From Escherichia coli (GTDB lineage: Bacteria > Pseudomonadota > Gammaproteobacteria > Enterobacterales > Enterobacteriaceae): a stretch of 38,099 nt of DNA. Below, one piece after another: positions 34,952-38,099 of the stretch (positions are counted from its first letter, which is position 1; each line of letters starts with the position of its first letter). The notes under the pieces are model-generated. The model worked only from the letters and a program-made list of their open reading frames with translations, searched no databases and was not told where the DNA came from. The stretch lies in NCBI RefSeq assembly GCF_003334335.1, contig NZ_QOWQ01000042.1. One strand, written 5' to 3'. Position numbers and translations under genes: made by a program.

Positions 34952-35116
34952 ATGGCAAAGCCGATCATCACGCTCAATGGCCTAAAAATCGTCATTATGT
35001 TGGGAATGCTGGTCATTATTCTCTGCGGTATCCGTTTTGCCGCCGAGATCATCGTGCCGTTTATTCTCGCATTATTTATTGCTGTTATATATAACTTATT
35101 TCACATAACACATTGA
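34952..35116 (+). pseudogene. tqsA: tqsA (ydgG), 3'-truncated after codon 45 at a junction with phage-derived DNA
   Basis: [45 protein letters not shown] matches TqsA; after gctgtt at 35086 the frame reads IYNLFHITH and stops. Confidence 0.75.
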
Positions 35117-35421
35117 TTTAATTAAATAATTAACACCGCAAAAAGTGCCAAAAATCGCAAAATGACTACACCAGTGACTACACCGTTCGGTGCACTGTAT
35201 GAAACAACGTGGAACAAATAGACACAAGAAATATACAGGCGGATCATCTTTCCAGGGGGAAGCGCACCAATTCATGAGGGGCGTTAATGTCGATATGGGG
35301 ATCCCCACCTACCGGAATTTTTTTCCGGTTAAACGTTAATCAGGCTGGTGGGCTTTACCTGTTCGGTAGGTGTTATGATTATCGTAATACCTTTCCCCCA
35401 ATGGGGTAAAAGCATCAACCG

Positions 35422-35652
35422 TAACGAAAGTCGTTATGGTTGCCACTGATACCCCAAATTTGGGTATCACGAGTAAGCCCCAAAATCTGGGTGTTACTCT
35501 TACTACCCAAACTACGGGTAGTTTCCGTAGTTTCATGGTCGAGTTGCAGATCTGCAACTCCCCCATTAACCACAGGCGAATTTCCGCCTTCGGTCATTCC
35601 TTAATCATCTGCGTAATCATAATGATTATTCAGCAAGCGCAATTTTGCGCTT
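35422..35652. repeat. array of short palindromes/hairpins in non-coding DNA next to the tqsA junction
   Basis: taacgaaagtcgtta (35422-35436), cccaaatttggg (35453-35464), cccaaaatctggg (35478-35490), aaactacgg-gtagttt-ccgtagttt (35509-35533), 20-bp perfect palindrome gagttgcagatctgcaactc (35541-35560), aagcgcaa-tt-ttgcgctt (35635-35652). Confidence 0.5.
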
Positions 35653-35814
35653 TGCTTAAAGTTCAGCGAGTTACCGCGCCGACTTCCTCAAATTGAGGTT
35701 TCCGAAAATATCAGCGGGTTAGCGATTAAGCTGACCATTAATTAAACTGCGAAAATGTCGTAGTTGTGAGGGGTGTAGCCAACCCATTTTTGGGCCGTCG
35801 GGAATATCAACCAG

Positions 35815-36096
35815 TTACCGCCGCAACCGCTCCGGCTTCTTCCAGTGGTACGTTATTTTCTCCTTCTCCCGATACATCTCCACGCGGCGACGGTAGGCCA
35901 GCAACTCAAGAACTCTGGTTCGTATGTTGCGCATATCCACGCCATTAAGTTCTATACCATCACGGCGCATCACCTCAGCAACAACACGCGCATAGTTTTC
36001 GGCTGTCACGCTGTCCGGCTGCGTGGCCTGTTCGTCAGCCTGCTGGCTGATTCCGGCAACGCGGCGGATTAATCCCGTTATTTCGGCTTCTGTCAT
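35815..36096 (-). CDS. hypothetical protein (93 aa) immediately downstream of the large terminase gene
   Basis: GAGGT RBS placed inside the terL 3' end, 7 nt before the ATG. No family recognised. Confidence 0.4.
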   Translation of the reverse strand: MTEAEITGLIRRVAGISQQADEQATQPDSVTAENYARVVAEVMRRDGIELNGVDMRNIRTRVLELLAYRRRVEMYREKEKITYHWKKPERLRR

Positions 36097-36109
36097 GCTG
36101 CTGACCTCA

Positions 36110-37771
36110 TTACACCCCGCTAAATTCTTCCAGTTTCTGGCGGTGGCTGTCGCTTATATCAAAAGCAAAATCCTCATGCTCTGCCTGGAATGTACCAAAC
36201 GCCATCAGCGCCGCCACGCTCGGGTCTATCTTGTTCGGTGATTTTTTCTTGTTCGGCTTGATATTGGCGTTCGCGTCACTCTGCATCACGACGTTACTCA
36301 TCGACCAGGACAACACCGGATCGCCACGATGCACAATCACCCTGCGGTTAACAAAAACTTCGAACGATTTCGCCGCCGGACTGAATCTGAGGTAGGTTTG
36401 CGGGAACGGCTCCACCTCAAAACCTGCCCCCTGTAATTGCGTTCTGAGATGCGTGGCGTTCCACGTATCAAAGCCCACCAGCCTGATATTAAATTTCTCC
36501 GCGTCCTGCATGATGTCATCTCTGATCCGGTCGTAATCAATGCAGTCGCCAGGCGTTGTGCGTATCCAGCCTGCTTTAGCCCACTGACGATAGACAGCGC
36601 GGTTTTTATTGGCGGGGTTCTGTAGCTGGAACTCCGGCAGATAATGACGGGAAATCAGCATAATGGTTTTACCGACCGGAAAGGCATAGCATACGCTGGA
36701 AATATCGCTGGTTGATGATAAGTCCAGCCCCGCGTAACACTCCTGACCGTGTAAATCTTCCTCCGTGAACGTTCCGGCACACTCAGCCCATGCACCATTA
36801 CCCATCCACGGGGTAGTCCCCTGACACCAGATATTAAATCGCTTTGTCATCATCTCCACCCACTGCGACGGAATACCCCGCGCTTTCTGGATGGTTGAGG
36901 CCAGTTTTTCACGATCCACGGAAACATCAATATTAGGGTTCGCCTTTATCCACATCGCCGGATCATCAACCTCGTTTTCGTCGTCCAGTTCGTAAATCAG
37001 TACAAAAATTGAATCGTTGACCTCTTCGCCGTCCAGGATCTGGCAGCAATAATCATAGTGCTGTTTACAGGCTGAAACGACGTTACTGCCCGATGTGGTA
37101 ATGGCAAATAACAGCCCTTCGGGACGTGCGCCCATCCCCAGCTCAAGCGCGGAATAAACGCCGTTATCGGGGTGTAGGTGGTATTCGTCCACGATGGAAA
37201 GACTGGGGTTTGTCCCCTCGATGGTTGCCGCTTTTGCTGCCAGCGGCTTTAACAGGCTGTTGCTTTTCGGGTGTATCACCTTATGCGCCTGAATATTCAC
37301 CCGCCTGCGTAACGGTCGGGATAAAAGGCACATCTGACGCGCATCATCAAACACGATCCGCGCCTGGTCACGGCTCACCGCTGCGGTGTAGATATCCTGC
37401 TGACCGTTCTCCATAATCAGAAACCAGTTAGCCAGAATCGCGGCGGTCGTGGATTTCGCATTTTTGCGCGGCACTTCGATAAAGGCGCTCGTGTATTTGC
37501 GCCGTCCGGTGGCCTTAACCTTAAAGCCGAGGATGCACGCAAAGGCGAACTGCTGCCACGGCTCCAGCTCAATGGGTCTGCCACGCATCGGTCCTTTTAC
37601 GTGCGGGCACACCCTGGAAAAGGCAATAAACCGCTCCACAACCTCACGATCGAACGTGTAAAGGGGGCTTTTAAGGTCCGAAAAGTACCGTTTAACAGCC
37701 TGTTTTAACCGTTTACAGGCCGGAATTTTGCCCGTTTTTACGTCTTCTGCGTACTTATTCCAGGCGGTCAA
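36110..37771 (-). CDS. terminase large subunit (Terminase_1 / HK97-like family)
   Basis: 553 aa; typical TerL N-terminus (MTAWNKYAEDVKTGKIPACKRLKQAVKRYFSDL...) and ATPase/nuclease-length body. The TTG start overlaps the upstream small-terminase frame. Confidence 0.8.
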   Translation of the reverse strand: MTAWNKYAEDVKTGKIPACKRLKQAVKRYFSDLKSPLYTFDREVVERFIAFSRVCPHVKGPMRGRPIELEPWQQFAFACILGFKVKATGRRKYTSAFIEVPRKNAKSTTAAILANWFLIMENGQQDIYTAAVSRDQARIVFDDARQMCLLSRPLRRRVNIQAHKVIHPKSNSLLKPLAAKAATIEGTNPSLSIVDEYHLHPDNGVYSALELGMGARPEGLLFAITTSGSNVVSACKQHYDYCCQILDGEEVNDSIFVLIYELDDENEVDDPAMWIKANPNIDVSVDREKLASTIQKARGIPSQWVEMMTKRFNIWCQGTTPWMGNGAWAECAGTFTEEDLHGQECYAGLDLSSTSDISSVCYAFPVGKTIMLISRHYLPEFQLQNPANKNRAVYRQWAKAGWIRTTPGDCIDYDRIRDDIMQDAEKFNIRLVGFDTWNATHLRTQLQGAGFEVEPFPQTYLRFSPAAKSFEVFVNRRVIVHRGDPVLSWSMSNVVMQSDANANIKPNKKKSPNKIDPSVAALMAFGTFQAEHEDFAFDISDSHRQKLEEFSGV

Positions 37772-38021
37772 GCTCGTCCTCTTCTTCTGTTTCCGGTGGA
37801 TTTTTACGGCGGCTTATCGGGTCAAAACCGAGCAAGGAGGCCATTTTTATCATCACTCTTTCAGCGTCGGATTTTGCGCTTAATGCGGGGTTTCTGCTCT
37901 CGCCGCCCTGACTGTTAACAATGCTGAACCCGCGCGCCGCAAGGTCTGCAACGGCTTTCCGGTAAATGGAGTAGTTGACGCAATACAGTTCCAGATTGCT
38001 CCAGTCGGCGGGGGTCAGGTC
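37755..38021 (-). pseudogene. small terminase subunit (P27-family-like C-terminal part) lacking a start codon
   Basis: 88-codon open frame DLTPADWSNLELYCVNYSIYRKAVADLAARGFSIVNSQGGESRNPALSAKSDAERVMIKMASLLGFDPISRRKNPPETEEEDELDRLE* opens directly after an in-frame TGA; the only ATG/GTG lies ~30 codons from the end. The stop overlaps the terL start. Confidence 0.45.
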
Positions 38022-38099
38022 TCATAAGCGCTAACTTAAGGGTTGTGGTATTACGCCTGATATGATTTAACGTGCCGATGAATTACTCTCACGATAACT

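Follow-up and report, generated by a model that had tools for sequence, protein, structure and literature searches.

A large terminase and a small-terminase frame lacking a start codon, placed directly beside a truncated host gene at one end of a 38,099-nucleotide stretch of Escherichia coli DNA (hereafter the window), raise the question of the kind of element to which they belong and of how it came to have this shape. The sequence-only reading of this fragment considered a terminase next to a chromosomal junction as abnormal and suggested a deletion remnant or a rearrangement of a prophage. Our analysis very strongly favors another explanation, i.e. the distal end of a cf-PICI located at the PICI site of tqsA, with an IS421/IS186-type insertion in its terS. 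This kind of element is already known and ordinary. Of the island, the window includes no more than TerL, orf93, a portion of TerS and the non-coding spacer (Table 1), the remainder being inferred from its relatives.

Table 1. Features of the junction, the spacer, the packaging genes and the insertion sequence, with coordinates in the window
Feature	Position	Strand	Basis or remark
tqsA (AI-2 exporter) 5' fragment, nt 1-137 of 1035	34952..35088	+	K-12 identity, then divergence
Attachment core TGCTGTTAT, 9 bp, distal junction	35080..35088		repeated at int-side junction of intact relatives
int-side junction sequence in tqsA, …GATAAAATGCTGTTATTCTTAACCCGCTGG			
att-site arm specific to this integrase type, non-coding	35089..35444		arm comparison between islands
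Two direct TGACTACACC copies, 12 bp apart	35163..35184	+	candidate integrase arm-type binding sites
Conserved palindrome module, 123 bp	35443..35565		fold z about -9.7 on both strands
Module palindromes, each ACCC-N6/7-GGG(G/T)	35447-35469, 35471-35499, 35503-35521		spacing about 26 bp
Perfect 20-bp palindrome GAGTTGCAGATCTGCAACTC	35541-35560		in 123-bp module
Three 18-bp direct iterons CGGTAACnnGnTGAnnTT	35659-35676, 35707-35724, 35803-35820	-	repeat search
orf93, conserved terminal PICI gene, 93 aa	35815..36096	-	phrog_1561, E = 3e-56
TerL, intact, 553 aa	36110..37771	-	phrog_9, E = 1e-179
TerS (P27 family), residues 31-118 and stop	37755..38022	-	phrog_83
IS target GGGGG-TCAGGTCT, CCCC next in intact gene	38010..38022		intact terS = GGCGGGGGTCAGGTCTCCCCGTTCC
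terS 5' part beyond target, (G)GTCAGGTCT-CCCCGTTCCGCAAGC			also given as CCCCGTTCCGCAAGCTGCCGCG after duplicated target
IS421/IS186-type element, first 77 nt	38023..38099	+	79/79 identical to IS421 copies
IS terminal inverted repeat CATAAGCGCTAACTTAAGGGTTG, 23 bp	38023-38045		
IS transposase ATG	38078		55 nt inside the element
Other IS421 end, …CAACCCTTAAGTTAGCGCTTATG			

The end of the host sequence had been placed at 35086, inside tqsA. The junction does lie within this gene, but the comparison with K-12 extends the identity to 35088, which corresponds to nucleotide 137 of 1035, and a tqsA fragment of the same extent is marked as a partial pseudogene by RefSeq in relatives. The core TGCTGTTAT is common to attB (K-12), to the junction of the window and to the int-side junction of FORC_069. 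Its reverse complement is ATAACAGCA, which PMC6092414 Table S1 gives as the tqsA attachment core of the PICIs EcCI042 and EcCIK1516. Its occurrence in tqsA represents a PICI-specific attachment site, not used by prophages. Judged from its sequence, the junction with tqsA corresponds to a clean att site without deletion scar. As previously noticed, the host block of 11 kb (about 24.08-35.09 kb) has phage-type DNA on both sides, on the left by a lambdoid prophage in ynfG, and the fragment on the right is foreign, packaging-related and independent of the prophage found at the start of the window.

Islands of ~15.7 kb occupy the same gene in FORC_069, E110019 and G1/2, with 98.1-98.9% identity to the island part of the window (99.7% for ESDR8). 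The relatives encode int, AlpA (PF05930), a primase, a major capsid protein, a protease, a portal, head closure and an adaptor, and distally HNH, TerS, TerL and orf93. Capsid, protease, portal, adaptor and connectors were verified with PHROGs in FORC_069, which is 98.9% identical, and the capsid-module genes are annotated in E110019, G1/2 and ESDR8; for the source genome they are expected beyond the IS, outside the window. The left module, recognized in relatives by its phrog_1 integrase, PF05930 AlpA and phrog_864 primase, is likewise outside the window, as is HNH, found directly upstream of terS in all intact relatives. No tail or holin/lysis genes were found between the att junctions of the intact relatives (about 15.7 kb) or at 35089-38022 of the window; these genes are forbidden by the cf-PICI criteria, which also give a size of about 10-15 kb. 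The relatives hold all of the 11 cf-PICI core components named in PMC10085698.

The gene order in the intact tqsA relatives is exactly that of proteobacterial cf-PICIs, in which capsid-protease-portal-connectors and then hnh-terS-terL are arranged opposite int. The hnh-terS-terL genes are at the operon end, with terS disrupted in the present copy. Because these genes close a single rightward operon, TerL and orf93 normally adjoin the chromosomal junction, and since the intact tqsA relatives display the same order, a terminase at the distal junction is the normal layout of this family. The position considered abnormal is thus usual for cf-PICIs. A contiguity with portal and capsid genes, which had been named as evidence that would refute the remnant reading, does occur in the relatives, although what they carry is a satellite rather than a whole prophage.

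The large terminase recognized from the sequence is present, matches PF03354 and PF20441, and possesses both the TerL_ATPase and the TerL_nuclease domains. It shares 548/553 residues with the TerL of EcCIEDL933, the prototype cf-PICI described in E. coli O157:H7 (Alqurainy et al., bioRxiv 10.1101/2022.09.08.507074), versus at most 36% identity with the best genuine phage, the closer “phage” records being only small satellite-sized deposits. A low identity to genuine phages has also been reported for EcCIEDL933 genes. The element carries its own terL, a component separating cf-PICIs from classical PICIs. The 93-aa ORF reported past the junction is also present (82/93 residues identical in EcCIEDL933) and constitutes the last gene in both classical PICIs and cf-PICIs. 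It has no match in Pfam, NCBIfam or PADLOC, and among the 120 listed of its 1028 homologues, all are unnamed hypothetical proteins, from E. coli or Shigella where the organism is given. Its AlphaFold2 model consists of three helices with a mean pLDDT of 66, too weak for a fold search.

The start-less small-terminase frame opening right after a stop is real. It covers 37758-38021 on the minus strand, with its stop codon at 37755-37757 and a TGA preceding it across 38022/38023, and its residues are identical (88/88) to residues 31-118 of WP_000113645.1, the 118-aa TerS of both EcCIEDL933 and the intact tqsA islands. TerS lacks a start because an IS421/IS186-type element cut terS and displaced codons 1-30; neither a frameshift nor a deletion on the side of tqsA accounts for this loss. 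The terminal inverted repeat and the transposase start of IS186/IS421 were both recovered in 38023-38099, which is 100% identical, and the 79/79 matches to IS421 occur in many E. coli genomes. A full IS421 copy measures 1339 bp, is bounded by perfect inverted repeats of 23 bp and duplicates 10 bp of its target. The element shares with IS186/IS421 (IS4 family) the 23-bp repeat, the location of the transposase start and a G-run...C-run target, but the target GGGG(N8)CCCC is a near match to the IS186 motif GGGG(N6/N7)CCCC (PMC5009759), with a spacer of 8 nt instead of the published 6-7, the second IS end, and with it any duplication of the target, lying outside the window. The short-read assembly apparently broke at this repeat, so that the window includes no more than 77 nt of the IS.

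With only these 77 nt visible, a simple insertion looks the same as a deletion or inversion mediated by the IS, which would turn the fragment into a true remnant whose capsid, replication and integrase part is missing or relocated. The far side of the IS is out of view, IS-copy recombination in E. coli occurs at about one eighth of the insertion rate (PMC5009759), relatives of the source strain have 12-13 IS421 copies, and ESDR8 represents a rearranged island of the same family. We nevertheless regard this event as improbable: the IS terminus is exact and directly adjoins a target of the GGGG(N8)CCCC type, as in primary transposition, simple insertions are commoner, and short-read contigs are expected to break off at an IS with or without a deletion. 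An assembly chimera between terS and the IS, leaving terS intact in the real genome, would fit with a junction situated at the very end of the window, with 77 nt of repeat that are typical of an assembly-graph boundary and with the presence of this junction in none of the 5,426 complete E. coli genomes. Such a boundary would, however, still require reads spanning the passage from unique to repeated sequence, and a random chimera would not produce a break that coincides exactly with the initial base of the IS inverted repeat and with an IS186-type target, which makes this possibility very improbable.

Even less credible is the prophage origin initially suggested, according to which an HK97-like or lambdoid prophage would have lost its head, tail and lysis genes beside tqsA. 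The relatives showed no contiguity with tail, lysis or immunity genes, and the window no deletion scar, its junction with tqsA being a clean att site whose core is the published PICI site. In this site the intact relatives carry 15.7-kb islands that possess the AlpA and primase modules of PICIs but neither tail nor lysis genes. TerL shares 99% identity with that of the cf-PICI prototype and at most 36% with those of genuine phages. The families of TerL and TerS are admittedly shared with HK97-like phages, and a terminase adjacent to the junction would be odd for a lambdoid prophage.

The assignment to a cf-PICI with an interrupted terS is also reflected in the comparison with known systems. 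EcCIEDL933 encodes an identical TerS protein, shares the order int-alpA-rep-capsid-protease-portal-connectors-hnh-terS-terL-orf93 with the intact relatives, and shares the arm-type repeats and the 18-bp iterons. Conversely, it sits between roxA and phoQ in EDL933 (ycfD/roxA-phoQ site, core GGACATATTT) instead of tqsA with core ATAACAGCA, the integrases are 91% identical (374/410), its terS is intact, it lacks the 123-bp palindrome module and it contains 6 iterons (relaxed pattern) versus 3 here. The classical E. coli PICIs EcCI042 and EcCIK1516, compared through their published site and core only, have the same tqsA site and 9-bp core (Fillol-Salom et al. 2018, PMC6092414 Table S1), but they are about 11 kb long and hijack the capsids and terminase of their helper, whereas the present island has its own capsid/terminase module. 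HK97-like cos phages (HK97 and the helper HK106, with an HNH-dependent terminase) resemble it in having a TerS of the P27 family, ATPase and nuclease domains in TerL, a partnering HNH protein and a capsid module of the HK97 fold; they differ by a TerL at most 36% identical, and from them the 15.7-kb island is distinguished by int-alpA-primase PICI modules and the lack of tail, lysis and immunity genes. The island is a mosaic, combining an EcCI042/tqsA-type integration module with a capsid/packaging module nearly identical to that of EcCIEDL933.

A non-coding spacer of 726 bp separates the junction from orf93 and the other island genes of the window, all on the minus strand. The arm that begins it is about 90% identical to the distal arms of the islands of the ycfD/roxA-phoQ site, whose integrase is 91% identical, and the distal arm differs in elements with another integrase. 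The TGACTACACC pair is also located near the int-side end of an intact island (L001, 35748/35760) and at both ends of EcCIEDL933-type and other PICIs. The DNA past the junction is palindrome-rich, as had been stated, with ten inverted repeats; the segment 35380-35620 has folding z-scores of -9.8 (minus strand) and -9.65 (plus strand), which 0/200 shuffles equal. Copies of the 123-bp module are 88.5-100% identical, and at least 94% in all but one, even when both flanks are different. The module is present in cf-PICIs and classical PICIs, EcCIEDL933 being devoid of it, and its pattern of presence and absence resembles mosaic recombination. The iteron at 35803-35820 extends over the stop codon of orf93. 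In L007, the spacer is of EcCIEDL933 type and contains six iterons by a relaxed pattern, four of them also by a stricter core pattern, other PICIs have 1-4 matches, and the motif has no further location within the elements examined. Palindrome module and iterons travel with orf93 regardless of the integrase and packaging type and, among cf-PICI relatives, regardless of three annotated replicase types.

No Rfam family was detected at 34800-36200 with E up to 1, ARAGORN predicted no tRNA or tmRNA, the promoter/terminator scan gave none beyond shuffle expectation and Tandem Repeats Finder no useful result. Compared by BLAST with 50,697 phage records, the spacer and the module yielded chance-level matches only, and a scan of 100,044 species representatives with the 20-bp palindrome returned a single, unrelated match and no related module copy in other species. 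Covariation was unusable as evidence on an RNA structure, since the copies share 88-100% identity and their few substitutions give no consistent signal. The lambda-type cosN GGGCGGCGACCT, searched with up to 2 mismatches, is absent from the spacer and is located upstream of orf93 in a classical PICI; the spacer is therefore not a lambda-type cos site. The module was rejected as a replication origin, being 99.6-100% identical across islands with three different annotated replicase types. It is also unlikely to be a MITE, no terminal inverted repeats being seen by eye at the aligned core ends.

We tentatively propose, as a possibility held with limited confidence, that 35443-35820 carries undescribed cis-acting PICI elements, composed of the palindrome module and of a variable-copy iteron array starting from the orf93 stop. 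They could be an array of operator sites recognized by a protein of the PICI or of its helper, perhaps by the one that orf93 encodes, or alternatively they could correspond to a structured RNA or to a transcription insulator at the island end.

In the favored explanation, a tyrosine integrase inserted the island at the known PICI site inside tqsA. By analogy with EcCIEDL933, the only element for which helper induction via alpA, small capsids and a transfer with helper tails only are experimental, the following life cycle may be drawn. Activation of alpA by a helper phage would lead to excision, for which TGCTGTTAT would serve as core and the TGACTACACC copies as arm sites, and then to replication, the island would form its own small HK97-fold capsids, HNH, TerS and TerL would cut and package the cos DNA, and tails of the helper phage would be added to the filled heads. 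In this copy, an IS421/IS186-type element transposed into terS codon 30 at the GGGG(N8)CCCC target, so that the start and residues 1-30 are separated from the remainder. This hit is expected to prevent the island from packaging itself and from being transferred, unless TerS is provided in trans; in EcCIEDL933, mutants of the packaging genes lost transfer, except that of one hypothetical gene, which was only severely impaired.

Recognition as a cf-PICI keeps this region from being filed as a defective prophage. Such islands are reported in 13% of Enterobacteriaceae genomes (PMC10085698), and 80% or more of the region is found in up to 336 of the 5,426 complete E. coli genomes. Wherever this site is occupied, tqsA is split by the island at codon 46, and the copy described here represents a natural case of a satellite likely immobilised by an IS in terS.

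Identity of the interrupted tqsA gene to its K-12 counterpart runs up to 35088, at nt 137 of 1035, so that the sequence-only reading had correctly placed the end of the host DNA inside tqsA, its coordinate of 35086 being two bases short. The 93-aa ORF (orf93), the 553-aa large terminase and the start-less small-terminase frame that it described were all recovered by ORF listing and by PHROGs and Pfam searches. The 553-aa protein is a complete large terminase (TerL; phrog_9, E = 1e-179) with an ATPase and a nuclease domain, and the start-less frame belongs to the P27-family small terminases (TerS), its full-length relative matching PF05119 and TIGR01558. 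Between the junction and orf93, a 726-bp spacer (35089-35814) displays no coding sequence and strong palindromes. The palindrome-rich character already reported for this DNA is borne out by the folding of 35380-35620 (z about -9.7 on either strand, with 0 of 200 shuffles as good).

Coordinates of the features at the right end of the window
Feature	Position	Strand	Basis or conservation
tqsA start	34952		ORF listing and direct reading
Arm	35107-35444		about 90% identity, shared only with islands having a related integrase
Palindrome module, 123 bp	35443-35565		88.5-100% conserved
orf93, 93 aa	35815-36096	-	ORF listing and direct reading
TerL, 553 aa	36110-37771	-	ORF listing; phrog_9, PF03354 (ATPase), PF20441 (nuclease)
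Start-less TerS frame	38021 down to stop 37755-37757	-	phrog_83
IS inverted repeat	38023-38045		position by complete IS421 copy
IS transposase ATG	38078		position by complete IS421 copy

Up to 336 of 5,426 complete E. coli genomes hold at least 80% of 34900-38099 (megablast), and all of the 30 matches listed cover the query from its first base on, truncated tqsA included. The foreign DNA forms an island of ~15.7 kb between the two tqsA halves in the relatives FORC_069, E110019 and G1/2. Read on the minus strand of the window, it encodes an integrase, a 62-aa AlpA-family regulator (PF05930), Icd-like and small ORFs, a primase or helicase, SSB, a PerC-like regulator, the major capsid protein, a prohead protease, the portal, a head closure protein, a head-tail adaptor, an HNH nuclease, a 60-aa ORF, TerS, TerL and orf93, followed by the spacer, each gene assignment being backed by PHROGs. 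No tail, holin or lysin genes were found in these three intact islands. Phage-inducible chromosomal islands of the capsid-forming kind (cf-PICIs) are defined by 11 core components and a forbidden-component rule (PMC10085698), both of which these islands match, and their gene order is that published for proteobacterial cf-PICIs, with morphogenetic genes first, then hnh-terS-terL (10.1101/2022.09.08.507074). The prophage deletion remnant previously proposed is thus not supported, and the region is read instead as the regular end of an element from a known satellite family, a cf-PICI, which occupies an attachment site already published and is hit at the contig end by an ordinary IS insertion.

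The prototype cf-PICI, EcCIEDL933, sits between roxA (ycfD) and phoQ in the EDL933 sequence. Its TerS has the same protein accession (WP_000113645.1) as that of the intact tqsA islands and is identical to the window fragment at 88/88 positions (residues 31-118), the corresponding values being 548/553 for TerL and 82/93 for orf93. Among 50,697 phage records, TerL matches above 60% were limited to four deposits, three of satellite size (10.7-16.5 kb, e.g. LR881103.1) and one inside a 106-kb Klebsiella record, and genuine phages reached 36% identity at most, in agreement with the reported low similarity of EcCIEDL933 to phages. LR881103.1 (“Escherichia phage vB_KppS-Ant”, 16,548 bp) is a phage deposit with a cf-PICI gene set (terS, terL, int, regulator, primase, capsid, portal, connectors and HNH) and no evident tail module; a 2.3-kb gene after terL, annotated “tail length tape measure protein”, occupies the place of the window's orf93 and spacer and may be an accessory gene. 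The Klebsiella phage P12620-1 (PQ569648.1, 106,503 bp) encodes at 90984-92642 a TerL 82% identical to that of cf-PICIs, annotated only as a hypothetical protein, which could reflect a cf-PICI that resides in a large phage or phage-plasmid or was co-assembled with one.

A 9-bp core, TGCTGTTAT (35080-35088), is common to the window junction, the integrase-side junction of FORC_069 and K-12 attB. Its reverse complement, ATAACAGCA, is the core listed for the site “tqsA” of the classical PICIs EcCI042 and EcCIK1516 (Fillol-Salom et al. 2018, PMC6092414 Table S1), and the same procedure applied to roxA-phoQ islands gave AAATATGTCC, the reverse complement of the listed GGACATATTT. At 35163-35184, 75-96 bp inward from the distal junction, TGACTACACC is directly repeated, its two copies being 12 bp apart; the pair recurs next to the integrase-side junction and, in the other PICIs examined, close to both ends, and represents candidate arm-type sites of the integrase. 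The integrases of tqsA-type and EcCIEDL933-type islands are 91% identical (374/410) and use different 9-10-bp cores, ATAACAGCA in tqsA versus GGACATATTT between roxA and phoQ; near-identical arm-type repeats, T[G/A]ACTACACC twice, are kept despite this difference (35748-35900 in L001, an intact tqsA island; 33285-33440 in L007, an EcCIEDL933-type island; 35080-35184 in the window). This has the appearance of a natural switch in core specificity within a single integrase lineage.

The spacer is a mosaic. The 123-bp palindrome module, composed of three palindromes ACCC-N6/7-GGG(G/T) about 26 bp apart and a perfect 20-bp palindrome, is at least 94% conserved in all copies but one, even with both flanks different, and occurs in cf-PICIs and classical PICIs. 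It is absent from EcCIEDL933 and therefore not essential to the cf-PICI cycle. Three 18-bp iterons (CGGTAACnnGnTGAnnTT, minus strand) form an array starting at the orf93 stop codon; six are counted in the EcCIEDL933-type spacer with a relaxed pattern, and the motif has no occurrence elsewhere in the elements examined. Neither module nor iterons matched Rfam, tRNA/tmRNA genes, phage genomes or representative genomes of other species. Both are independent of integrase type and packaging type, and the module is essentially unchanged whichever of three annotated replicase types the island has. They could serve as arrays bound by proteins or form the structured end of a transcript; the available copies are too alike for a covariation test. 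A second 60-aa ORF (35415-35597, minus strand), inside the module and partly annotated as a hypothetical protein in strain ESDR8, is probably spurious because the flanks that it would need for start and stop differ between module copies.

As the sequence-only reading had anticipated, the terminase fragment is not simply the other end of the left-hand phage DNA, which is a separate lambdoid prophage in ynfG (1-24100; integrase at 22891-24054, truncated ynfG from about 24107). This prophage encodes RecE, Gam, Bet, Exo and Kil, regulators resembling CI, Cro and CII, a toxin pair of RelE/ParE type (placed at about 7.9-8.5 kb through homology to G1/2) and, on the minus strand at 1085-3088, an esterase of the SASA family with 667 aa. 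FORC_069 and G1/2 share this prophage, and in both it lies 11 kb from the same cf-PICI. The closest relative, ESDR8 (99.7%; NZ_CM169472.1, locus 20000-35800), keeps the distal end of its island in tqsA, but the integrase end adjoins roxA-pepT-potA and has an integrase accession of the EcCIEDL933 type; this implies either a large inversion or that two resident PICIs, one at tqsA and one at roxA-phoQ, have recombined. In the O157 strain FDAARGOS_293, a classical PICI, not EcCIEDL933, occupies the same roxA-phoQ site, with two inverted lambda-type cosN (18919-18930 and 19786-19797 of locus L005 in that strain) either side of its terS-like gene. This PICI has the orf93 and the arm of the cf-PICIs, so that entire packaging modules are exchanged between the classical and the capsid-forming type of island while the ends stay identical.

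All relatives cease to match at 38022/38023, and the remaining window sequence, starting at 38023, shows 100% identity to the end of IS421 (IS186-type, IS4-family), such matches being found in 2,188 genomes. A complete copy measures 1339 bp; its 23-bp inverted repeats (CATAAGCGCTAACTTAAGGGTTG) are perfect, the target duplication is 10 bp long and the transposase ATG lies 55 nt inside. Uninterrupted terS reads GGCGGGGG-TCAGGTCT-CCCC at the insertion point, close to the IS186 target motif GGGG(N6/N7)CCCC (PMC5009759) but with an 8-nt spacer. Codon 30 of terS is split by the insertion, and the TGA rightly noticed ahead of the start-less frame is created at the terS-IS junction. This junction occurs in 0 of 5,426 complete genomes; strain G1/2 shares the two-element layout, and its terS is intact. 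Exactly 77 nt of the IS are present before the window stops, and a short-read assembly graph with k = 77 leaves 77 nt at a repeat; this suggests that the window corresponds to one complete short-read contig, or to the terminal part of such a contig, interrupted by a repeat; its start, inside the lysozyme gene of the ynfG prophage, may be a similar break. With only 77 nt of the IS in the window, an IS-mediated deletion or inversion was weighed against a simple insertion, the latter being much more likely because of the precise IS terminus and target and of insertion-to-recombination rates of roughly 8:1 (PMC5009759). The remainder of the island would then lie beyond the IS, outside the window.

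Extrapolating from EcCIEDL933 experiments, a helper phage would induce the island through AlpA; the island would then excise and replicate, small island-encoded capsids would be assembled, its DNA would be packaged by HNH-TerS-TerL through a cos mechanism, and the heads would take on helper tails. The record ends of LR881103.1, a packaged Klebsiella relative, lie in the stretch that separates terS from the 60-aa ORF and hint at a cos site there, beyond the window, these ends being possibly arbitrary. In EcCIEDL933, transfer is lost in mutants of every packaging-module gene but one, the mutant of hypothetical gene 1792 being severely impaired; by analogy, the IS-split terS should immobilise the copy present in the window, unless TerS is supplied in trans.
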